From NCBI GenBank assembly GCA_001189195.1, contig LFCQ01000003.1, forward strand, positions 207,791 to 271,790: a stretch of DNA of 64,000 nucleotides. Direction: 5' to 3'. Shown piece by piece: positions 7,884 through 27,806 of this stretch. Position 1 is the first letter of the stretch. The number at the start of each line of letters is the position of its first letter. The notes under the pieces are model-generated. The model worked only from the letters and a program-made list of their open reading frames with translations. It was not told where the DNA came from and made no database searches. Source of the DNA: Parcubacteria bacterium C7867-007. GTDB taxonomy: Bacteria > Patescibacteriota > Minisyncoccia > Phycocordibacterales > Phycocordibacteraceae. The position numbers and the translations under genes are program-made.

Positions 7884-8294
7884 ATGCAGTACCTCAAAAG
7901 CCTGGCATTCAGGAGATTCTTAAAATATGCGCTTGTTGGAGGCAGTACCCTTACGTTTGATCTCACCCTCCTCTACATAGCGACCGATATCTTTGGTGTT
8001 CCCTACTATATATCCACCCCAATCGCGTTCTTAATCGCTGTTTCCATTAACTATTTGATAAGTCGTCGCTTTGTATTTAAGGGGACGGAGCGTCGAATAC
8101 ATCATGGGTATGTATATTTCATCACTATCGCTGTAGTGGGTTCATTTGCTACCACTGCCCTTGTTACGGCACTTGTTACTCTCACGGGAATGTACTACTT
8201 GCTGGCCCGTATCCTTGTGGCGTTTGTAATTGGTATAGGAAATTATCTGTTCAACCTCTATCTAAACTTTAGAGTGGTTGGACGACATCAATAA
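7884..8294 (+). CDS. GtrA-family membrane protein (polysaccharide synthesis/translocation associated)
   Basis: RFLKYALVGGSTLTFDLTLLYIATDIFGVPYYISTPIAFLIAVSINYLISRRFVF is the GtrA signature, with four TM helices and ~136 aa. Confidence 0.75.
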   Translation: MQYLKSLAFRRFLKYALVGGSTLTFDLTLLYIATDIFGVPYYISTPIAFLIAVSINYLISRRFVFKGTERRIHHGYVYFITIAVVGSFATTALVTALVTLTGMYYLLARILVAFVIGIGNYLFNLYLNFRVVGRHQ

Positions 8295-8296
8295 AT

Positions 8297-8326
8297 AAGG
8301 AGATCCCGTCTTACGACGGGATCCTT
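8297..8326. terminator. bidirectional intrinsic terminator between convergent genes
   Basis: GGAGATCCCGTC-ttac-GACGGGATCC forms a 9-10 bp stem and sits between the GtrA stop (8294) and the NUDIX stop (8325). Confidence 0.6.
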
Positions 8327-8804
8327 ATACATCCTCCCTGTCCTCAAAGGGGAGGAATTCGATTCTTTCAAATCCACGAGCACGTTCACGATAGTAGACG
8401 TTCGCACAGAACTTCTCTCCCGTGGCTGCTTTGCGGAACCACTCAATATCTGATTCCAGCATGCGCCAATAGGGCAGATCATCCGTCTCATGCCATGAAG
8501 GAATCATTTCTGGTGTCTCGCGTACGACTCCTTCAAAATGCTCTGTACGGAAGACATGAACGCGGAAGTCAGGAATACCGGCGACGTGTGCGGTGACAAT
8601 CGCAACCTTGGTCAAGGTTTCAGGAGAAAGCTTGAGACCAAGTTCCTCGTCCGTTTCGCGTATGGCGCACTCTACCAGGGTTTCACCTGGCTCAAGCTTC
8701 CCACCCGATCCGTTGAGGGTTCCGATTCCAATCTCACCCTTTTTCTTCTCAGCAAGTAAGGTGAGTGGTCCTTTTGTGATGATTACTAGTGAGGCTTCAA
8801 TCAT
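8325..8804 (-). CDS. NUDIX hydrolase
   Basis: Nudix box GGKLEPGETLVECAIRETDEELGL (GX5EX7REUXEEXGU). Confidence 0.8.
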   Translation of the reverse strand: MIEASLVIITKGPLTLLAEKKKGEIGIGTLNGSGGKLEPGETLVECAIRETDEELGLKLSPETLTKVAIVTAHVAGIPDFRVHVFRTEHFEGVVRETPEMIPSWHETDDLPYWRMLESDIEWFRKAATGEKFCANVYYRERARGFERIEFLPFEDREDV

Positions 8805-8866
8805 GATCGTCCTTTCTATAGGTTCAATGCCGAAATAACCATAGCACCCCTGCCTGTGTTATACAC

Positions 8867-9289
8867 GTGTCCCCTGACCTTCTGCGCGTATTACGCTATA
8901 TTATAAGTACGATTTGTATGTCCGGACTATCCCACAGATACCATGAAGACCGCCCGTGGGGATCTTTTGACCGTTTTACAGAAAACGAGCCATCTGAAGT
9001 TAAATTCCTAAATGTTGAAGCAGGAAAGCGTTTTTCACTACAGCGCCACTCAAAGCGTTCAGAGTTCTGGAAGACAATTAAAGGGAGCGGCGTGGCTGAA
9101 GTAGATGGTGTTGAATATCCAATGGAAATAGATAGTGAAGTGATAATCCCTCTTGGATCAACGCACCGTCTCACCGGAGGACCACAGGGGATTACCGTAC
9201 TTGAAATTGCGCTCGGTGAGTTTGATGAGAATGATATCGAACGATTAGAAGACGACTTTGGGCGAGTAGCGGAGCAGACTCATGAATAG
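8867..9289 (+). CDS. cupin-domain protein (mannose-6-phosphate isomerase type II-like cupin)
   Basis: A DRPWGSF motif followed by FLNVEAGKRFSLQRHSKRSEFW...PLGSTHRL resembles the ManC/PMI C-terminal cupin. The true start may be Met19 (8921). Confidence 0.55.
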   Translation: MSPDLLRVLRYIISTICMSGLSHRYHEDRPWGSFDRFTENEPSEVKFLNVEAGKRFSLQRHSKRSEFWKTIKGSGVAEVDGVEYPMEIDSEVIIPLGSTHRLTGGPQGITVLEIALGEFDENDIERLEDDFGRVAEQTHE

Positions 9290-10424
9290 CAGTCTCATTC
9301 TGTTTTTCATTGTTGTACTGATAGCATTTTTCGTAACGGGACTCTTTATTTATGGGGTCTGGAATGTTATTCGTTCCTTTGCTGAGAAAGCGAATCTCAT
9401 CCAAGCAATCATTGAAGCACTTCGTTTGGGTCGCTCTGGTGCTAATCCAATTCTTAAGAAAGGTCCGTATGAATGGGAAGCACAATCAGTATTAAATCCG
9501 GCTGCCGTTGAAGTGGATGGAAAGACTCATATGTTCTACCGCGCCATTGGAAACGATGGCGTGTCTCGTATTGGGTATGCTTCTTCGAAGGATGGTACAG
9601 ACTTTGATGAACGTCTCCCCTATCCTGTATTTGCTGGAGAACAACTACGCGCAGGAACATACCGGTATGATCCTGTGCTGTATCCCTCGGGTGGTAGCTG
9701 GGGAGGAACAGAAGATCCGCGTGCAGTGATTATTGATGGCATTGTATATCTAACATTCAACATGTTTGATGGATGGGACAACATGCGAGTGATGCTCACC
9801 ACGCTCTCTGTGGAGGATTTGAAAGCTAAGCGATGGAACTGGAGCACTCCCACGTACCTCTCTCCACAAGGACAGCGCCATAAGAACTGGGTTCTATTCC
9901 CTGAAAAGATCAACGGAAAGTTTGCGATACTTCATAACCTTCACACCGAAGATCCTGATCATGTGCGTGTGGACTATGTTGATGATCCCCGTCGTATTGG
10001 TACGGAACTTCCAACGATTGAAAGCGCTGACCCTAACGCGCTACCTGATCGCCCTGTTGCATGGCATAAGCGCATGCGCAGTGCCGGCCCCCCTCCACTT
10101 AAAACAGATGCAGGATGGCTTCTTCTGTATCACGGCACCGATGAAGAATCTCATAAATATAAGATGGGCGCTGCGTTACTCGATTTGAATGATCCAACCA
10201 AAATAATTGCACGTGCACCACTTCCCGTACTTGTACCTGATGCATCATACGAAAATGAAGGCAAGCCAGGTATCGTGTATGGTTGTGGCGCAACTATTAC
10301 TGACGATACTCTTCGTGTGTACTACGGTGGCGGAGATAATGTGATTTGCACCGCATCAGCACACCTCCCAACCTTCTTAAAGACCCTCATTGGCCAGGGT
10401 GCACCTAAGCTAGCAACTCCGTAA
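9282..10424 (+). CDS. glycoside hydrolase family 130 (DUF377) protein with N-terminal TM anchor
   Basis: N-terminal helix ILFFIVVLIAFFVTGLFIYGVW is followed by GH130 motifs: ANPILKKGPYEWEAQSVLNPAAVEVDGKTHMFYRAIGNDGVSRIGYASSKDG...EDPR.... Confidence 0.8.
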   Translation: MNSSLILFFIVVLIAFFVTGLFIYGVWNVIRSFAEKANLIQAIIEALRLGRSGANPILKKGPYEWEAQSVLNPAAVEVDGKTHMFYRAIGNDGVSRIGYASSKDGTDFDERLPYPVFAGEQLRAGTYRYDPVLYPSGGSWGGTEDPRAVIIDGIVYLTFNMFDGWDNMRVMLTTLSVEDLKAKRWNWSTPTYLSPQGQRHKNWVLFPEKINGKFAILHNLHTEDPDHVRVDYVDDPRRIGTELPTIESADPNALPDRPVAWHKRMRSAGPPPLKTDAGWLLLYHGTDEESHKYKMGAALLDLNDPTKIIARAPLPVLVPDASYENEGKPGIVYGCGATITDDTLRVYYGGGDNVICTASAHLPTFLKTLIGQGAPKLATP

Positions 10425-10425
10425 T

Positions 10426-12354
10426 ATGTTTATCGTAAACCGCTCACCCAATAATCCGATCATCGTCCCTTCGCGTGCAAATGCATTTGAGGCGATCGGT
10501 GCATTTAATCCAAGCGTAGTGCATAAAGATGGAGTTACCCACCTCTTCTATCGAGCCATGGCAGAGCCAGATGTGGTACGTACTCCCCATCATGGATTCT
10601 CAACCATTGGCCATGCTGCTGGATGCGGGGATGTTGATTTTGAAGAACGTACCCAGGTTATTGAAGCAACAGAAGAATGGGAGCACTACGGGTGTGAGGA
10701 TCCGCGTGCAACGTTCTTTGAGGGTAAGTGGTATGTGTTCTATACAGCACTGGGAGGATATCCGTTTGGTCCAGGAAATATTAAGGCAGCAGTCGCTATT
10801 GGAGAACGTCCAGATGCACTCACCGAGAAACATCTTGTTACTCCTTTTAATGCTAAGGCGGCGACCCTATTCCCTGAACGTATAGATGGTGATGCGGTAC
10901 TGCTCGTAACCGCACATACGGATTGGACACAAGAGCATCCACGTCCAACTATTGGCATAGCACGTTCAAAAAACATTGAAGATTTCTGGAACCCATCGTT
11001 TTGGAAAGAATGGCATGCAAATCTTTCCGATCATGCCCTTCCCGATGTGCGTCGTGCAGATACAGAGCATATGGAGGTTGCGGCAACACCTATCCGTATT
11101 CCACAGGGCTGGCTTCTCGTCTATTCACACATTCAGGATTACTACGATGAACATCGTCGCATCTTTGGTGTTGAAGCATTGTTGCTTGATGCAAATGATC
11201 CTCGAAAGATAATTGGAAAAACAGCGTATCCATTTATGGTGCCTGAGGAATCATATGAACGATACGGTATCGTCGCCAACATCGTATTTCCTTCTGGTGC
11301 GAGTGTGCACGCAGATACGCTTCATGTGTACTACGGTGCTGCAGATACCTCTTGTGCAACTGCGACTCTTTCACTTTCTTCTCTGCTTGAATCAATGGAT
11401 GCAGACAAGCGCAAGAACTTTGGTACTCGTGCCGAGGGTAACCCGATACTTGTTCCTGTTCCGGAACACTCATGGGAGTCACGTGCCGTCTTTAATGCCG
11501 CAGCAATTGATCACTCCGGCTCTATACACCTGCTCTATCGCGCCATGGGTGCAGATTCAACATCAACCATGGGGTATGCACGCCTTGAGGACGGTATTCA
11601 TGTCACTGAACGATTGAATGAGCCAGCATACTCACCACGTGAATCATTTGAAGCAAAGGGGGGTGCGCCAGATGGAAACTCTGGGTGCGAGGACCCACGC
11701 CTTACCCTCTTAGACGAAACACTCACCGTCTGCTACACCGCCTATGACGGACAAATATCGGTACGCGGCGCGCTTAGTACAATCCCCATTCAAGACTTTG
11801 TTGATAAGAAGTTTAATAACTGGAGCACACCGAAACTTATCACTCCGGCAGGGGTGCCCGATAAAGATGTATGTATCTTCCCTGAACGCGTTGAGGGGAA
11901 AGTAATTGTGATGCATCGGCTTGATCCAAATATTTGTATAGCAAAGTTTGATTCACTCGAAGATATTGATGTTATCGATAGCGCCTTCGATATTATGGGA
12001 CCACGTCGTGGTATGTGGGACGGCCACAAGGTTGGCGCAGGTGCTGCACCAATACGAGTACCCGAGGGATGGCTCTTTATCTATCATGGTATTGCCCCTG
12101 ACAAGAAAACGTATCGCCTGGGAGCTGCTCTATTAGACGAGAGCGGAGAGCGAGTACTCTCACGTATGGTTGCACCTATATTGGAGCCTCTTGAAGATTG
12201 GGAGAAGCACGGTCAGATTGGTGATGTGGTATTCACCTGTGGTATTGCCCAAAGAGACGATACGCTCTTTGTGTATTACGGGGGTGCTGATAGCAAGCTC
12301 GGTGTGGCAACATTCTCAGTATCAGATCTTATGAAGCGCCTTACCGCTACCTAG
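10426..12354 (+). CDS. tandem double GH130 (DUF377) domain protein
   Basis: There are two complete GH130 modules. The first begins NNPIIVPS...FNPSVVHKDGVTHLFYRAMAEPD...CEDPR. The second begins GNPILVPVPEHSWESRAVFNAAAIDHSGSIHLLYRAMGAD...CEDPR. The start is 2 nt after the previous gene's stop. Confidence 0.8.
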   Translation: MFIVNRSPNNPIIVPSRANAFEAIGAFNPSVVHKDGVTHLFYRAMAEPDVVRTPHHGFSTIGHAAGCGDVDFEERTQVIEATEEWEHYGCEDPRATFFEGKWYVFYTALGGYPFGPGNIKAAVAIGERPDALTEKHLVTPFNAKAATLFPERIDGDAVLLVTAHTDWTQEHPRPTIGIARSKNIEDFWNPSFWKEWHANLSDHALPDVRRADTEHMEVAATPIRIPQGWLLVYSHIQDYYDEHRRIFGVEALLLDANDPRKIIGKTAYPFMVPEESYERYGIVANIVFPSGASVHADTLHVYYGAADTSCATATLSLSSLLESMDADKRKNFGTRAEGNPILVPVPEHSWESRAVFNAAAIDHSGSIHLLYRAMGADSTSTMGYARLEDGIHVTERLNEPAYSPRESFEAKGGAPDGNSGCEDPRLTLLDETLTVCYTAYDGQISVRGALSTIPIQDFVDKKFNNWSTPKLITPAGVPDKDVCIFPERVEGKVIVMHRLDPNICIAKFDSLEDIDVIDSAFDIMGPRRGMWDGHKVGAGAAPIRVPEGWLFIYHGIAPDKKTYRLGAALLDESGERVLSRMVAPILEPLEDWEKHGQIGDVVFTCGIAQRDDTLFVYYGGADSKLGVATFSVSDLMKRLTAT

Positions 12355-12355
12355 T

Positions 12356-13102
12356 ATGCCTGCACTCATCTTCTTTGATATAGACAAGACGCTAACCTCT
12401 AGCAAGCAACCACTTACTCCAGAGATGGCAGCACTACTGACGCAGCTCCTTGAACGAACAAATGTCGCTATTATTTCTGGGGGAGCTTTTGCGCAGTTCC
12501 GCGAACAAATCATCAATCAGCTGCCACAGAGCGCATGTTTTGAACGTCTCTATATTCTTCCCACTTCTGGCGCAGCACTCTACACCTATCAGAATGGTGC
12601 GTGGAAACCAGTCTATGAGGAACACCTCACTGACGCACAAGCGGTGAAGATTCGTGCAGCAATTGAAACAGCTATACAAGAAACAGGAGTTATTGATCTT
12701 GGCACTCCATCATTTGGTGATCGTATTGAATTTCGTGGTGCACAGGTGACACTATCTGCACTTGGCCAGCAGGCACCTATTGCTGAGAAGGAGGGGTGGG
12801 ATCCAGATGCCTCAAAGAAACGTATTCTCCGTGATGCAATCGCACCCATGCTTCCGGAGTTCGATGTTAAGACCGGCGGGTCAACGAGTATCGACGTTAC
12901 GCTTCAGGGAGTTAATAAAGCGTACGGTGTTCGCAAGGTTAGCGAGATTGGCTCGTTCCTTATAAGTGACATGCTGTACATTGGTGACGCATTGTATGTA
13001 GGGGGCAACGATGAAGTGGTGAAGGAGACCGGTATTCGTACTCATCAGGTGAGTGATCCTGATGATACGATGCGAGTTATTCAAGAATTGTTGTCTCGAT
13101 AG
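12356..13102 (+). CDS. HAD-IIB hydrolase, eukaryotic-type phosphomannomutase (PMM)-like
   Basis: FFDIDKTLTSSKQPLTPEMAALLTQLLERTNVAIISGGAFAQFREQI aligns by eye to the PMM2 N-terminus (FDVDGTLT..RQKIT.EM..FL..L...IGVVGGSDF). A C-terminal GDALYVGGND motif is also present. Confidence 0.7.
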   Translation: MPALIFFDIDKTLTSSKQPLTPEMAALLTQLLERTNVAIISGGAFAQFREQIINQLPQSACFERLYILPTSGAALYTYQNGAWKPVYEEHLTDAQAVKIRAAIETAIQETGVIDLGTPSFGDRIEFRGAQVTLSALGQQAPIAEKEGWDPDASKKRILRDAIAPMLPEFDVKTGGSTSIDVTLQGVNKAYGVRKVSEIGSFLISDMLYIGDALYVGGNDEVVKETGIRTHQVSDPDDTMRVIQELLSR

Positions 13103-13116
13103 GCTATTCTATATAC

Positions 13117-15036
13117 ATGAATCAGTTCTACGTAGTACTCCCTGCAATCATCGGCTGCTATCTTGTTACGCTCGTATTTATTGCAGCAGTGATACGTGAG
13201 CTCTGGGTGATCCATCATCCTGGTTTAACGTTCTGGGGATTCTTGGAACACAAAGTGCGTATACCTAAAGAGAAGAAAATAAAAGAAGTGAAAGTGCCAG
13301 TCGTTAAAGTATCAAAGCCTATTAAAGTACAGTCACCAGCAGTTCCTATTGTTCCAGCAATTCCTCTGGCAGCACGTTCCCCACTCTATCGTTTAATACA
13401 GCCACACCTTCAAGGTGAGGTGGAAGACTCCACTGAGGAACGTGACAAGTATTCTCGAGACACTAGCCTCTTTACGAGAAAGCCGGAGCTCGTCGTGTAT
13501 CCAAAGAACGCTGATGATGTATCAGAGCTCGTTATAGCAGCACGTGCGGCACGTACCCATGGCATGGATGTTTCTATAACTGCACGCTCTGCAGGAACAG
13601 ATATGTCTGGTGGCCCCCTCACCAACTCAATTGTTGCAGTGTTCACGAAATACATGAATAAAGTGATTACTGTTGGTCCAGAAGGTGATCATGGATATGC
13701 CGTCACTGAGCCAGGGATCTACTACCGAGACTTTGAGAAAGAAACACTAAAGCATGGTTTTATACTTCCCTCCTATCCTGCCTCACGCTCTATCTGTGCG
13801 CTAGGAGGAATCATCAATAACGATTCCGGTGGTGAACGTACTCTTGAGTATGGAAAAACTCGCAAGTATGTAGAGGAACTTGATGTGGTGCTTTCAGATG
13901 GAACACAGACCACGTTCAAAGCTCTCACTGCCCGTGAACTTGCTGAGAAACAGAAGCTCCCAACGCTTGAAGGATCTATATACAAGCGTATGAGTGAGAT
14001 GGTGAGCACGTATTCAAAGACCATTGAGAAAGCACGGCCACGCGTGTCAAAGAACTCAGCTGGGTATGCGCTTTGGGATATACATGATCCTAAAACAGGC
14101 ATGTTCAATCTTGCAAAGCTTATTACGGGTGCACAGGGTACCCTCGCTCTTGTTACCAAGGCAAAGCTTTCACTCGTGAAGCCACAGGAACATCGTGCCA
14201 TGCTCATTGTGTTTCTTTCTGATCTTGAGGTGCTGCCGCAGGTGGTGAAGAAGGTGCTTCCCTTCAACCCAGAATCATTTGAATCATATGATGATCACAC
14301 GCTAAAACTTGCCGTGCAGTTCATGCCACAAATGCTTTCTCAGATGGGCATATTCCGTGCTGCACGTCTTGGCATGTCCTTCCTGCCTGAGGTGGGTATG
14401 GTACTTCGTGGTGGTGTACCAAAGTTGGTGCTCATGGCTGAGTTCTCAGAAGATACGGCAGACTACGCGCTTAAGCGTGCACAAGATGCACGTGCTGCTG
14501 TATCCTCTCTTAAGCTCCCGACAAGTATCGCAAAGAACGAGCGGGGTGCTGAGAAGTACTGGATCGTTCGTCGTGAGAGCTTTGCACTTTTGCGCAAGAA
14601 TCTAAAGGGGCTCTATGCTTCCCCATTCATTGATGACTTTGTGGTACCTCCGGAGTCTTATCCAAAGTTTCTTCCAGAACTTAACACTCTACTTGCGAAG
14701 TACGATCTTATATACACGATCGCAGGACATATTGGAGATGGTAACTTCCATATCATTCCACTCATGGATGTTTCAAAACCAGAGGCACGCAAGATTATTC
14801 TTGAGCTTGCACCACTCGTTTATGACATCGTACTCAAATACGGTGGCTCTACCACCGGTGAACACAACGACGGTATCATTCGTACCCCATACCTTGAACA
14901 GATGTTTGGTGCAGATATGGTGAAACTGTTTGCAGAAACAAAACGTATCTTTGATCCCGAGAATATCTTCAATCCTGGGAAGAAGGTTGGGGGTACCTTT
15001 GCAGATATTGAGGAGAGTATGATCCGGAAGATGTAG
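13117..15036 (+). CDS. FAD-linked oxidase (FAD_binding_4; GlcD/D-lactate dehydrogenase-like) with N-terminal TM and Pro-rich linker
   Basis: An N-terminal TM helix is followed by KVPVVKVSKPIKVQSPAVPIVPAIPL. The FAD-binding PCMH domain is then present (VVYPKNADDVSELV...RSAGTDMSGG....ALGGIINNDSGG), and a C-terminal FAD-oxidase_C region. Confidence 0.8.
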   Translation: MNQFYVVLPAIIGCYLVTLVFIAAVIRELWVIHHPGLTFWGFLEHKVRIPKEKKIKEVKVPVVKVSKPIKVQSPAVPIVPAIPLAARSPLYRLIQPHLQGEVEDSTEERDKYSRDTSLFTRKPELVVYPKNADDVSELVIAARAARTHGMDVSITARSAGTDMSGGPLTNSIVAVFTKYMNKVITVGPEGDHGYAVTEPGIYYRDFEKETLKHGFILPSYPASRSICALGGIINNDSGGERTLEYGKTRKYVEELDVVLSDGTQTTFKALTARELAEKQKLPTLEGSIYKRMSEMVSTYSKTIEKARPRVSKNSAGYALWDIHDPKTGMFNLAKLITGAQGTLALVTKAKLSLVKPQEHRAMLIVFLSDLEVLPQVVKKVLPFNPESFESYDDHTLKLAVQFMPQMLSQMGIFRAARLGMSFLPEVGMVLRGGVPKLVLMAEFSEDTADYALKRAQDARAAVSSLKLPTSIAKNERGAEKYWIVRRESFALLRKNLKGLYASPFIDDFVVPPESYPKFLPELNTLLAKYDLIYTIAGHIGDGNFHIIPLMDVSKPEARKIILELAPLVYDIVLKYGGSTTGEHNDGIIRTPYLEQMFGADMVKLFAETKRIFDPENIFNPGKKVGGTFADIEESMIRKM

Positions 15037-15274: not shown

Positions 15275-15304
15275 CACCGCTCTTTGAGCGGTGCTCTATT
15301 TTGC
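15275..15304 (+). terminator. intrinsic terminator closing the structured element
   Basis: CACCGCTC-tttg-AGCGGTG followed by ctctattttg. Confidence 0.5.
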
Positions 15305-15385: not shown

Positions 15386-15874
15386 ATGGGCGACGAAGCT
15401 GAGGTAAGCATCCGCTCATGTGAGGGATGCACCGCCTGTTGCTATACGCATGCAGTCGGAGAAATACAGAAATGGGAATTCAGTACTTGCGCTTCATGCA
15501 ATGAAACGGGCTGCGGTATCTACGCATCACGACCCCGTGCATGCGGCTCATATTTCTGTGCCTGGGCGGTTAACGACATCGGAAATGATGACGAGCGTCC
15601 GGATAAGGTAGGTGTGGTTTGCAATACACTATTCACTCGCTTCACCGCAGATGATCCTCCCTCAATACTAATGCTGGAGGCATGGCCTGGAGCGCTTGAT
15701 GAAGGACCGGCGCAGGCACTGCTGGCTCGAATACTTGCAGACGGAACATCAGTCCGTACCGGAACACGAGATGGGTCACCACGCTGGAAATACCATGTTC
15801 TCAAACAGACGATGGAAACATTCGGGCAGATGCTCGAAGAGAATAATCTTAAAGTTGTCTGGCACGATATTTGA
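15386..15874 (+). CDS. YkgJ-family (UPF0153) putative Zn/Fe-chelating CxxCxxCC protein
   Basis: N-terminal CEGCTACC (CxxCxxCC), plus a further Cys cluster CASCNETGCGIY...CGSYFCAW. Confidence 0.65.
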   Translation: MGDEAEVSIRSCEGCTACCYTHAVGEIQKWEFSTCASCNETGCGIYASRPRACGSYFCAWAVNDIGNDDERPDKVGVVCNTLFTRFTADDPPSILMLEAWPGALDEGPAQALLARILADGTSVRTGTRDGSPRWKYHVLKQTMETFGQMLEENNLKVVWHDI

Positions 15875-15930
15875 ACTCATCTAGAGACCGTCTTAGGACG
15901 GTTCTCTTTTTATAATTGCGAGCTGGCAGT

Positions 15931-15950
15931 CTGGGACGATGTTGGAACCT
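15931..15950 (+). promoter_or_regulatory. copy 2 of the 20-nt direct repeat, 46 nt upstream of the next gene start
   Basis: Perfect match to 15318-15337 with the same spacing to an SD (ggagga) and ATG (15997). Confidence 0.45.
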
Positions 15951-15996
15951 GTGCTACGGTGGTCTCAGATTTGAAATATCAGCTCTGGAGGAGCAT

Positions 15997-16572
15997 ATGA
16001 CCAGAACAAAAACTGAGATACTCGCTCAAGCTCGGCAAGACAGCGCAATGCGAATGCTGTTCGAGGGGTTGAGCGAGGAGAATGCGCTTCGTGTTGCTTG
16101 GCAGGTGCTTTCCCACAAGCACTCGCGATATCTCAGCGAATTCGATCCGAATCTTATCGATGATATTTTCGCGCAAGATGTTCTTAGAATGATTCAAGAA
16201 TACACTGCTGAATTCATGACCTACGTAGACGTGGTCAGCATGGACGGGCACCGAGTTTCCCTTTCTGTCCGACTCACTACGGAGCTTCCGTTCAAGCTCA
16301 ATGGATCCTTCTTGGGCTTGCCGCCCTTTCCGCTTATCAACGAGGCCGAGCTGCTCGAAGTTCGGGTAAGTGGTCAGATGGTCATCTACAAAAGCCAGTG
16401 CACCACCGATCACACAAAGAATGAGAATTCTCTTTCAGCGATGACGAGTTTTGATTTGGTCACACTGGATCGGTGTCGTGTAGAAGTTGATTTTTTTGCG
16501 AATAATCGCTGGCTCACTCGACATCTGGTGCGCATTGACCCATCAGTTATTCAAAGTCACCCTTCGGGGTGA
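15997..16572 (+). CDS. hypothetical protein
   Basis: The start is placed at MTRTKTEIL (the ORF's Met28), which has a good SD (ggagga, 6 nt spacing). No family recognised. The stop lies inside a terminator hairpin. Confidence 0.5.
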   Translation: MTRTKTEILAQARQDSAMRMLFEGLSEENALRVAWQVLSHKHSRYLSEFDPNLIDDIFAQDVLRMIQEYTAEFMTYVDVVSMDGHRVSLSVRLTTELPFKLNGSFLGLPPFPLINEAELLEVRVSGQMVIYKSQCTTDHTKNENSLSAMTSFDLVTLDRCRVEVDFFANNRWLTRHLVRIDPSVIQSHPSG

Positions 16573-16776: not shown

Positions 16777-17145
16777 ATGGCAAACAACAAGCTCTATGTC
16801 GGTGGTATCCCATACCGCACGACCGAGGATGAACTCCGAACTGCTTTTGAAGAAGCAGGTACAGTAACGTCCGCAAGTATTATCATGGACCGTATGACCA
16901 ATCGCTCACGTGGCTTCGGCTTCGTAGAGATGGCAGACGATGCAATGGCCCAAGCGGCTGTTGATCGCTGGGATGGCAAGGAGATGGATGGCCGTATGCT
17001 TTCCGTTTCATTTGCTCGTCCTCAGGGTGACCGTCCAGCAGGTGATCGTCCTCCTCGTCGCGAAGGCGGCTTTGGTGGCGGAAACCGTGGCGGTGGCTAT
17101 GGTGGTGGTGATCGCGGCGGCTTCGGCGGCGGCAACAGCTACTAG
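16777..17145 (+). CDS. RRM-type RNA-binding protein with Gly-rich C-terminus
   Basis: RNP-2 KLYVGGIP and RNP-1 RGFGFVEM motifs are present. The C-terminal tail GGFGGGNRGGGYGGGDRGGFGGG resembles cyanobacterial Rbp / glycine-rich RBPs. Confidence 0.85.
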   Translation: MANNKLYVGGIPYRTTEDELRTAFEEAGTVTSASIIMDRMTNRSRGFGFVEMADDAMAQAAVDRWDGKEMDGRMLSVSFARPQGDRPAGDRPPRREGGFGGGNRGGGYGGGDRGGFGGGNSY

Positions 17146-26559: not shown

Positions 26560-26979
26560 TTATATTAGTGACACTAGCAAGGCTTGCTTAGTTTCTCGAA
26601 AGTCATCTTCAGAAATTGAACCTATTTTGCGTAGCAAGCGCTTGCTACTAATAACCCGTACTTGAGTAAGCTTCACCCACGAGAGTTTTCCACGAATCTG
26701 AACTGGATGATGGAACGAGTTCTCATGTTTTTTGCTAGTAACTGGCAGAACTAGCAGAGTAAGGGAATTATACACTTTTAAAACCAATACTGGTCTTTCA
26801 AACACACTATTCTTTCCATCAATTTCAGCTCCAATATTGAGTCCAAGTGCACACCACCAGACTTCGCGATTGTGTGCAAATATATGTACAGAACGTTTTT
26901 CGAGAAACTTTTTCTGCTGATTCCATGTATCAAAATCTTTCTCACTTTGCATGACCGCAGAAGTATACGCCATGCACAT
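26560..26979 (-). CDS. PemK/MazF-family toxin-like endoribonuclease (no cognate antitoxin gene seen)
   Basis: REVWWCALGLNIGAEIDGKNSVFERPVLVLKVYNSLTLLVLPVTSK...QIRGKLSWVKLTQVRVISSKRLLRKIGSISEDDFRETKQAL matches the MazF/NdoA pattern G-x-V-W-x-x-L-x-x-x-G-x-E-x-x-G-K...RP-V-L-V-L...L-P-x-T-S...IRTI-SK-RL...IG-LS. The start may be Met10 (26952). Confidence 0.6.
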   Translation of the reverse strand: MCMAYTSAVMQSEKDFDTWNQQKKFLEKRSVHIFAHNREVWWCALGLNIGAEIDGKNSVFERPVLVLKVYNSLTLLVLPVTSKKHENSFHHPVQIRGKLSWVKLTQVRVISSKRLLRKIGSISEDDFRETKQALLVSLI

Positions 26980-27344
26980 AAAATTAAACTGAATCTTTTA
27001 TGGAAAGGAAAAGGCCCGCGCATCTCGCGCGAGCCTCCTTTATTCCGCTGCCGCGGCGGTGCGGTCAGTCGTCCGGCGGGCTGCTGCCCTGCCGCGGCGT
27101 CACGACCCCCCGAAGCGGGGACTGCCGGGACTCGCGTCCCTTGTGCCCTTTCGAGCCCTTGCTGCCATTGCAGCGGCGGTTTTGGATTCGAGCCAACCTC
27201 TTCTCCCTAAGTACTTCCCTGAGCCCCATTTGCCCAGAAACTACAAGTTATAACATGAGGTATGGGAAGTCAAATATACTGAATGACTGACTCCCAAAGT
27301 ACGAACAATATCTTACGTCGATGTACTTCGTTTATACTCTCTAT

Positions 27345-27806
27345 ATGAAATCTGAATCCCGGTACTGGCTCGTTAAATCTGAGCCCTCCTCATACTCCAT
27401 TGATGATTTGAAGGTGGACAAAAAGACTTCTTGGACGGGTGTTCGTAACTATACAGCTCGAAACTTTATGCGTGATGCTATGAAGCAAGGTGATCCGGTT
27501 CTCTTCTATCATTCCAGCTGCCCTGTTCCGGGTGTGTATGGTATTGCGAAGGTTGTATCTAAATCATATCCAGACCCCACTCAGTTTGACCCCGCGTCTC
27601 CCTACTACGATCCGAAAGCAACTGAAGAGAAACCTATTTGGTATTTGGTTGATATTGGCTTTGTTGCAAAGCTAAAGGACCCCGTTACGTTAGACGCGAT
27701 GAAGAAGGACAAGAGATTGCAGAACATGACGTTGCTTCAGCGAGGAAATAGGTTGTCTGTGATGGAAGTTAGAGCTAATGAGTTTGTGGCAATTGAATCG
27801 TCTTAG
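27345..27806 (+). CDS. EVE-domain (PUA-like) protein
   Basis: RYWLVKSEPSSYSIDDL...WTGVRNYTARNFMRDAMKQGDPVLFYHSS...GVYGIAKVVS is the canonical EVE/THYN1 signature. Confidence 0.75.
   Translation: MKSESRYWLVKSEPSSYSIDDLKVDKKTSWTGVRNYTARNFMRDAMKQGDPVLFYHSSCPVPGVYGIAKVVSKSYPDPTQFDPASPYYDPKATEEKPIWYLVDIGFVAKLKDPVTLDAMKKDKRLQNMTLLQRGNRLSVMEVRANEFVAIESS

Follow-up and report, generated by a model that had tools for sequence, protein, structure and literature searches.

A predicted cytoplasmic operon of Parcubacteria that would connect β-1,2-linked mannosides with fructose-6-phosphate through one canonical and two non-canonical GH130 domains

Phosphorolysis of a mannoside to mannose-1-phosphate (Man-1-P), followed by a phosphomannomutase (PMM) and a phosphomannose isomerase (PMI), is the textbook GH130 route; the β-1,2-mannoside phosphorylases of the family are well characterised, and catabolic GH130 routes for β-1,4-mannosides are also present in Ruminococcus. 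The Man-GlcNAc phosphorylase pathway of Bacteroides thetaiotaomicron is a catabolic β-1,4-mannoside route as outlined in PMC4264767, and BF0772/BfMGP of B. fragilis (PDB 3WAS) is a β-1,4 GH130 enzyme cited in PMC4599007. Among β-1,2 enzymes, Teth514_1788 and Teth514_1789 of Thermoanaerobacter sp. X-514 are phosphorylases of GH130_6 (Chiku 2014, PMC4264767; 9FJ8, 7FIP), and BT3780 and BACOVA_03624 are β-1,2-mannosidases of GH130_3 (Cuskin 2015, PMC4599007). Leishmania has a mannogen cycle with the GT108 enzymes MTP1-7 (Sernee 2019, cited in PMC8950772 and PMC10913872). Here we describe a gene cluster at 8325-15036 of a 64,000-nucleotide (nt) stretch of DNA from Parcubacteria bacterium C7867-007; this whole stretch is the window in what follows, and families were called by hidden Markov model (HMM) scans of its open reading frames (ORFs). 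We put at roughly 0.6 the probability that the cluster represents a Parcubacteria-wide cytoplasmic operon that connects β-1,2-linked mannosides with fructose-6-phosphate (Fru-6-P) with no ATP used. Three reversible steps would make this connection. The C-terminal domain of a fused GH130 protein would convert mannoside(n) and phosphate (Pi) to mannoside(n-1) and α-Man-1-P, a PgmH/PMM-type HAD mutase would interconvert Man-1-P and mannose-6-phosphate (Man-6-P), and a PF01050 cupin would interconvert Man-6-P and Fru-6-P. The N-terminal domain of the fused protein would act hydrolytically, and a separate protein that we call GH130_1 would work at the membrane with an anionic partner that is bulkier or of another kind.

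The cluster consists of six ORFs carrying seven domains, as seen from the ORF list and the HMM scans (Table 1). A previous reading of this DNA from its letters alone (the sequence-only reading) had described seven consecutive genes; its families and coordinates were borne out, and its gene count was not, because the second and third GH130 domains form a single 642-amino acid (aa) protein. In ~15 genomic contexts with differing flanks, the constant unit was GH130_1, the fused GH130 (N-domain plus C-domain) and the HAD mutase, which adjoin in every Parcubacteria context sampled, with the gene order sometimes changed, and which the small cupin accompanies in most contexts. Because this core is kept together amid unrelated flanks, sometimes in altered order, its clustering exceeds chance. 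The contexts comprise six related genomes from a genome scan (L001-L006) and the neighbourhoods of more distant orthologs (L007-L014 and L018). The block of cupin, GH130_1, fused GH130 and mutase is kept together in all six related genomes, including L005, where its surroundings are rearranged and GtrA, the ABC-2 transporter and the FAD oxidase are not beside it. Further afield, the core has the window's gene order in L009/L010 and L012, the order PMM-cupin-GH-GH in L008, and phosphoketolase and acetate kinase genes beside it in L014, and in L018 a GH130_1 with its transmembrane (TM) helix is fused to a C-type domain and followed by the mutase. The coherent mannoside, Man-1-P, Man-6-P and Fru-6-P gene set that had been proposed is therefore present as enzyme families. 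Its description as a salvage pathway is not supported, an importer being unlinked in most contexts.

Several variants of the core deserve mention in their own right. In L007 (Kaiserbacteria) a gene for a 355-aa multi-pass membrane protein with a weak MFS_1 match (L007 9207-10274) interrupts the core after GH130_1 and before the fused GH130, and it is the only transporter-like gene seen within the module in the contexts sampled. In L011 and L013, where a PF01050 cupin was not detected beside the core, a 207-aa very basic protein without a Pfam family is encoded directly upstream of the fused GH130 gene (L011 9471-10094 and L013 8164-8787); the two copies are 57% identical, and the window has none. 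The GH130_1-type domain of L008 (8001-9884) is without a TM helix and follows an extra N-terminal domain of ~300 aa that lacks the catalytic motif. Finally, in P0039, a 458-aa protein encoded on a contig of 1.8 kb, a cupin is fused to GH130_1, although this could be a frameshift artefact.

All three GH130 domains belong to the family, with PF04041 scores of 117.6 bits for GH130_1 and 268.9 bits, in two stretches, for the fused protein (cut-off 26). Their closest solved relatives in a PDB sequence search were Teth514_1788 and Teth514_1789, and the three domains are 28-38% identical to these and to one another. GT108 membership was considered and rejected, as no MTP structure (6Q4X, 6Q50) was among the PDB sequence matches at E ≤ 1e-3 to 1e-5, all of which were GH130. 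We then applied published residue rules to the alignments. In UhgbMP, D104 is the proton donor, R168 and H231 are phosphate ligands, and β-1,2 specificity goes with Glu at 103 (instead of Tyr) and Lys at 150 (instead of Arg) (Li 2020, PMC7660257; for the β-1,2 rule also PMC4599007). GH130 hydrolases lack the basic ligands and have Glu227 and Glu268 instead (Cuskin 2015, PMC4599007). In Uhgb_MS the phosphate pair is gripped by K184, R202 and R242 (Ladeveze 2025, PMC12814180), and in GT108 enzymes that act as transferases only, the same Arg is replaced, an Arg to His change abolishing phosphorylase activity (Franceus 2024, PMC10913872). The published numbering is recovered when GH130_1 is aligned with Uhgb_MS: K184, R202 and R242 fall on K201, N219 and M265 of GH130_1. 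Residue patterns were followed in seven independent lineages as well as in 114 GH130_1 orthologs and 22 diverse N-type domains.

The catalytic proton-donor Asp, whose loss the sequence-only reading had named among the results that would count against it, and the -1 subsite Asp (D304 of UhgbMP) are kept in all three domains (GH130_1, D145/D352; N-domain, D92/D307; C-domain, D423/D622), and both are invariant in the aligned orthologs save for alignment gaps at D307 in 2 of 22 N-type sequences. The β-1,2 signature Glu, directly before the donor Asp, and Lys are likewise invariant in all three (E144/K201, E91/K144 and E422/K480, in the same order). The phosphate-binding Arg (R168 of UhgbMP, R202 of Uhgb_MS) is present in the C-domain alone, as R498; GH130_1 has N219 at this position and the N-domain T162. 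The other positions of the site, given for the C-domain, GH130_1 and the N-domain in turn, are K535, M265 (with an invariant R266 adjoining) and H215 at the R242 equivalent, H554, H284 and S234 at the phosphate His (H231), and R564, K294 and G248 at the 'YRLG' Arg. New carboxylates are found in the N-domain (D166 in 22/22 and E217 in 21/22 sequences) and in neither of the other two. The C-domain, with E422-D423, K480, R498, K535, H554, R564 and D622, is thus alone in having the phosphate-binding Arg and His together with the full signature, and for this reason it is the sole one of the three domains predicted to be a β-1,2-mannoside phosphorylase. It matches Teth514_1788 (9fj8) with E 1.5e-52 in the PDB sequence search and scores 390 bits on NF052550, below the 450 cut-off of that model. 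By the phosphate-ligand check that the sequence-only reading had itself suggested, the claim that three GH130 enzymes phosphorolyse β-mannosides therefore narrows to one domain, the other two lacking the Arg in all orthologs examined. This absence also bears on the wider account of which the claim was part, in which all three domains phosphorolyse imported β-mannosides, the NUDIX protein cleaves GDP-mannose, and the module also includes GtrA and the FAD oxidase. We consider that account unlikely, even though the domain families that it names are present and known GH130 systems are mostly catabolic (PMC4264767).

The GH130_1 protein is 100% identical to one recorded for Parcubacteria bacterium C7867-007. 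It begins with a TM helix at ~aa 5-27 (nt 9294-9362), and the GH130 domain follows. In its orthologs (n = 114) the N-terminus preceding the helix has 3-8 residues and is neutral or acidic, and the segment after the helix is net positive. Given this charge distribution and the positive-inside rule, the catalytic domain is predicted to be cytoplasmic and tethered to the inward-facing side of the membrane. Position 219 is Ser in 64, Asn in 44 and Gly in 6 of the 114 orthologs, a small residue throughout and never Arg. H284 is present in 113 of them, R266 is conserved one position past the Uhgb_MS R242 equivalent, and no new invariant carboxylate was found in the set. With K201, R266, H284 and K294 as basic residues, the predicted pocket appears to be still cationic but altered. 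We read GH130_1 as something other than an ordinary phosphorylase. It may be either a transferase or a phosphorylase of an atypical kind, in both cases with an anionic partner that is bulkier or otherwise different.

In the N-domain, position 162 is Thr, Ser, Ala or Asn and never Arg (22/22 diverse domains), and the phosphate-His column holds Ser, Cys or Ala, with a variable His or Tyr one residue on. The carboxylates D166 and E217 lie at K+22 and K+73 relative to the β-1,2 Lys, and the Glu pair of BT3780 lies at K+28 and K+69. Because the basic phosphate ligands are replaced and two invariant carboxylates are gained, we read the N-domain, by analogy, as a hydrolase-type, β-1,2-mannosidase-like domain. 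No hydrophobic segment is seen at the N-terminus of the fused protein in the translated window ORF. The N-type domain, with its Asp/Glu pair, would be cytoplasmic, and in most cases it shares its chain with a phosphorylase. Judged by these residues, the GH130_1 and N-type clades seem to fit neither the phosphorylase signature (Arg/His) nor that of the secreted hydrolases (Glu pair). Public annotations label proteins of both types phosphorylases or generic glycosidases.

The three GH130 types are also joined in other ways. P0362 contains a GH1-type, an N-type and a C-type domain in a single 971-aa chain, P0402 is a fusion of a TM-GH1 and a C-type domain, P0372 joins a C-type to an N-type domain, and P0363 has an N-domain, a C-domain and an extra domain. 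Co-inheritance and fusion in several combinations argue that the three types would act on a common substrate. P0362 itself (L015 4947-8916) has no TM helix, and its start overlaps the end of a mannose-1-phosphate guanylyltransferase gene by 23 nt, in a cluster that also has a sugar-nucleotide dehydrogenase, an epimerase and a 652-aa GT2.

The HAD mutase scores 54.2 bits on PF03332 (cut-off 22.4) and 58.4 bits on TIGR01484 (cut-off 41.8), and its sequence shows D8-I-D10 as the DxD motif and, at 210, GDALYVGGND with the GGND motif. It groups with models of PMM and α-phosphoglucomutase (APGM), as had been expected, and not with Cof-type HAD phosphatases, an assignment that we rejected because TIGR00099 gives 32.4 bits against a cut-off of 137 and covers residues 4-99 only. 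The description of this protein as a eukaryotic-type PMM, unusual for a bacterium, could not be upheld. Its closest solved relative is bacterial, the APGM 4BND of Lactococcus lactis (E 1.5e-44, full length, 36% identity), the eukaryotic PMMs matching at ~1e-17 and weaker in the PDB sequence search, and the type is common in the Candidate Phyla Radiation (CPR): more than 1000 homologs were found, with source names all from Patescibacteria among the 120 listed. The constant linkage to GH130 genes favours Man-1-P as the substrate, an argument drawn from gene context.

The cupin matches PF01050, the family of the type II PMI C-terminal domain, over the whole domain (66.3 bits; cut-off 23.6). Nine residues are invariant in 47 sequences (R12, W14, G15, Q42, H44, R47, E49, W51 and H83), and the motifs RPWG (R12-P13-W14-G15) and SLQxH..RxE.W..H are invariant or nearly so. 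Q42, H44, E49 and H83, which we take to be the ligand set following the assignment reported by Jensen & Reeves 1998, form a predicted Gln/His/Glu/His group that is kept throughout, and the metal-binding His and Glu of a PMI, to which the sequence-only reading had tied its assignment, are in place to this extent. An AF2 model of the cupin has a pLDDT of 89; a Foldseek search with it returned generic small cupins only, the Thermococcus PMIs 7zvm and 7zvy included, and the fold therefore does not discriminate function. A PDB sequence search gave no match for the cupin at E ≤ 0.01. The generic structural matches and the missing PDB match would also fit a different account, in which the cupin is not a PMI, the mutase is glucose-specific like L. 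lactis PgmH, and adjacency to GH130 genes reflects hexose-phosphate housekeeping or shared regulation; that 4BND is far ahead of the PMMs as a relative of the mutase points the same way. However, the mutase stands beside GH130 genes in every Parcubacteria context sampled, which is unexpected for a housekeeping phosphoglucomutase, and the PF01050 score and the conserved motifs speak for a PMI-type cupin. We regard that account as very unlikely.

Several considerations weigh against the proposed route from β-1,2-mannosides to Fru-6-P. The first concern the substrate and its supply: β-1,2-mannosides are rare in nature, which fits scavenging badly, and no uptake system is linked to the module, the sole candidate being the weak MFS-like gene of L007. 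L013 and L018 lack the cupin beside the core, none was detected there in L011, and a PF01050 domain is no guarantee of PMI activity. The Man-1-P step is argued from gene context, the closest characterised relative of the mutase being a phosphoglucomutase, and in the work of Neves 2006 L. lactis PgmH was reportedly inactive on mannose phosphates. GH130_1, with its several basic residues, might bind phosphate after all. Lastly, the putative hydrolase analogy of the N-domain with Glu227/Glu268 of BT3780 is one of spacing and conservation.

The cupin, GH130_1, fused GH130, mutase and FAD oxidase genes, all on the plus strand, look like one operon, because these five overlap or are separated by tiny gaps (the cupin and GH130_1 genes overlap by 8 nt, and the other gaps are one non-coding base or 14 nt) and a pattern scan found no terminator-like site at the junctions among them. 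A terminator-like hairpin 3' of the FAD oxidase gene is the probable operon end. The cupin most likely starts at ATG 8918 (123 aa) and not at GTG 8867, since its orthologs have 115-128 aa and a promoter-like site lies at 8874-8902; the latter is weak evidence, as shuffled controls hold more such sites than the region does. Separately, GtrA and NUDIX, which are convergent genes, have between them a strong hairpin of 10 pairs (6 G-C) at window 8301-8324 that could terminate transcription in both directions. Scans of the window for tRNAs and Rfam families gave no match.

Table 1. Features of the cluster and its borders in the window (positions in nt).
Feature	Position	Strand	Basis and remarks
GtrA	7884-8294	+	HMM
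NUDIX	8325-8804	-	PF00293, E 6.5e-10
Promoter-like site CTGACC-17-TATATT	8874-8902	+	Pattern match, 9/12 positions; upstream of cupin ATG 8918
Cupin	8918-9289	+	PF01050, E 3.6e-18; ORF listed from GTG 8867
GH130_1	9282-10424	+	PF04041, E 7e-34; 380 aa
Fused GH130, two domains	10426-12354	+	PF04041, E 6.5e-80; 642 aa
Fused GH130, N-domain	10426-11400	+	aa 1 to ~325
Fused GH130, C-domain	11428-12354	+	aa ~335-642
HAD-IIB/PMM mutase	12356-13102	+	PF03332, E 2.3e-14
FAD oxidase (FAD_binding_4 + FAD-oxidase_C)	13117-15036	+	HMM
Terminator-like hairpin	15275-15293	+	Pattern match only; 3' of FAD oxidase

The genes at the border of the operon are neighbours and not parts of the module. The NUDIX protein had been suggested as a GDP-mannose hydrolase, and we rejected this role (Gmm/NudK type): its best match is to the MTH1/NUDT1 8-oxo-dGTPases (PDB 6ehh, E 7e-21, full length), MutT/NudG models match as well, and its orthologs adjoin the module only in the two closest genomes, L001 and L002. 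In L011 a second NUDIX gene (13879-14319), non-orthologous to that of the window, overlaps the start of the PMM gene, with a TrmB-family regulator just upstream, and leaves a weak doubt about this rejection. GtrA, which had been counted as a glycan-related member, forms with the ABC-2 transporter a separate divergent unit that is unlinked in L005, L007, L008, L011 and L013, and we rejected both as module parts. The neighbouring ABC system is of the ABC-2 exporter type and has no solute-binding protein. These results, too, stand against the account with imported β-mannosides and a GDP-mannose-cleaving NUDIX.

The FAD oxidase is less clear-cut, and its membership of the module is uncertain. Its family is that of the D-lactate, glycolate and D-2-hydroxyglutarate dehydrogenases, which gives no sugar link, and the protein has a TM helix at its N-terminus as well as a linker rich in Lys. 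The gene adjoins the core in close relatives of the window, is split from it by a membrane-protein gene in L003, with a similar gap in L004 and L006, lies 7 kb away in L005 and is absent in the L007, L008, L011, L012 and L013 contexts. In L009 (11080-13659) and L010 (11098-13659) the mutase and the oxidase are joined in frame into a single chain of 854-860 aa, and no TM segment separates them. P0097, the GH130_1 ortholog next to this gene, was found on 24 contigs with mostly similar neighbourhoods. Such a fusion is a Rosetta-stone hint of a functional tie, and the oxidase family suggests no sugar role. The gene could be an operon passenger or a lineage-specific add-on.

The net flux we read, by default, as mannoside degradation to Fru-6-P, the mannoside being imported or self-made. 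Catabolism is favoured by the MFS-like gene within the L007 module, the TrmB-type regulator near that of L011, and the phosphoketolase and acetate kinase neighbours in L014, all of which also speak for the account with imported β-mannosides. Other features lean towards a self-made glycan or a GDP-mannose link, namely that importers are absent, that β-1,2-mannosides are rare in nature, that the three active sites are differentiated, that GH130_1 is tethered to the membrane, and that ManC and GT2 genes lie beside the triple-fusion homolog in L015 and a GT2 gene is a neighbour in L017. These features lead to the possibility of a make-and-break cycle of a self-made β-1,2-mannan or oligomannoside, a bacterial counterpart of Leishmania mannogen metabolism. 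Here Fru-6-P would pass through Man-6-P and Man-1-P to a polymer, by reverse phosphorolysis or with the Arg-less GH130_1 as a transferase; the C-domain would recover Man-1-P from the polymer, the N-domain would trim or prime chains, and the polymer would buffer hexose phosphate and Pi or be an envelope glycan. The enzyme set would suit such a cycle in being self-contained and reversible, its three active-site types recall the GT108 MTP array (PMC10913872, PMC12814180), and the characterised β-1,2 GH130 phosphorylases all use GDP-mannose weakly too (PMC12814180). However, neither the window nor most Parcubacteria contexts have ManC in or near the module, our literature search found no report of β-1,2-mannan from CPR, the proteins are GH130 and not GT108, and the ManC link in L015 is equally explained by GDP-mannose salvage as proposed for Thermoanaerobacter (PMC4264767). 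We hold such a cycle to be possible but rather unlikely. Its form with three dedicated GH130 paralogs (an Arg-less, tethered, synthase-like GH130_1, a phosphorylase C-domain and a hydrolase-like N-domain), fed from Fru-6-P via a cupin PMI and the mutase, we give about the same low probability.

Most of the large ORFs in the window were scanned against Pfam, and no ManC, hexokinase or sugar importer was found among them; the scanned ORFs are mostly housekeeping, plus a two-component pair, the ABC-2 exporter and a MazF-like toxin. Some of them merit a record of their own. Downstream of the operon, two ORFs without a family match (15386-15874 and 15916-16572), the first Cys-rich with several CxxC-like pairs, had no counterpart detected in L001-L006. 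They are followed by a gene (16777-17145) whose 122-aa product, an RNA-binding protein of the RRM_1 family that ends in a Gly/Arg-rich tail, is 98% identical in L001 and, over its first 87 residues, 88-90% identical in L003, L004 and L006, conservation far above that of its neighbours. A MazF/PemK-type toxin gene (26560-26979) and an EVE-domain gene (27321-27806) stand among housekeeping genes, and the ORF at 40461-41453 matches ribosomal protein S16 only at residues 187-244, its listed start probably being too far upstream.

In a literature search on GH130 in CPR we found one passing mention, in a Microgenomates genome paper, and no description of a Parcubacteria-wide module or of the two non-canonical GH130 clades. 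The GH130_1 and N-type clades are candidates for new activities, for example that of a mannoside synthase; dual transferase/phosphorylase behaviour in the GH130 family was reported only in 2025. A conserved mannoside module in CPR genomes with very limited sugar metabolism would point to a host-derived β-mannoside nutrient or to an unrecognised internal glycan pool. If a cycle on the organism's own mannan were true, it would be a nucleotide-sugar-independent carbohydrate and phosphate buffer in minimal-genome organisms, and a bacterial mannogen counterpart.

Among known systems, the Teth514 cluster resembles the module in its cytoplasmic location, its E/K β-1,2 signature, its adjacent GH130 paralogs and its link to Man-1-P metabolism, and its ManC neighbour is matched by that of the triple-fusion homolog P0362. 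In contrast, both Teth514 enzymes are canonical phosphorylases with the Arg/His pair, as only one of the three domains is here, and the Teth514 cluster has an ABC importer, a GH5, ManC and a GT4, whereas the module has the HAD mutase and the PMI-like cupin and no importer. The β-1,4 routes share the proposed logic of phosphorolysis to Man-1-P, a phosphomannomutase and a Man-6-P isomerase leading to Fru-6-P, with one ATP saved. They differ in having a Y/R signature, a PMM of the α-D-phosphohexomutase type, a type I PMI, and loci with importers and secreted mannanases.

The individual enzymes can be compared in the same way. The mutase is of the same HAD-IIB PMM-like fold family as L. lactis PgmH (4BND), with the DxD and GGND motifs. 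PgmH is said to be a housekeeping glucose-phosphate mutase, whereas the mutase described here is always clustered with GH130 genes, suggesting Man-1-P as its substrate. The cupin shares motifs with the C-terminal domain of ManC/AlgA-type type II PMIs (PF01050, TIGR01479) but is stand-alone, with no nucleotidyltransferase domain; with the Thermococcus cupin PMIs (7ZVM, 7ZVY) it shares the small single-cupin fold at only 14% identity. The N-domain is like BT3780 and BACOVA_03624 in that the catalytic Asp, the Glu beside it and the β-1,2 Lys are retained and the basic phosphate ligands are gone; its D166 and E217 fall in the two stretches of sequence that hold Glu227 and Glu268, a putative equivalence judged by spacing. 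Those enzymes are secreted and stand-alone, whereas the N-domain lacks a signal peptide, shares its chain with a phosphorylase domain and has a sequence nearer to that of Teth514_1788 than to that of BT3780.

The Leishmania mannogen cycle differs from the module in that its enzymes are GT108 and not GH130, and the phosphate-pocket Arg is replaced here by Ser/Asn/Gly or Thr and not by His. Furthermore, GDP-mannose pyrophosphorylase is not linked to the module, and a polymer made by it is hypothetical. The cycle is like the module in having five-bladed propellers for β-1,2-mannan, a HAD-type PMM and a PMI link to Fru-6-P. The MTPs, like the GH130 paralogs described here, vary at the phosphate-pocket Arg, which is present in phosphorylase-capable members and replaced in transferase-only ones.

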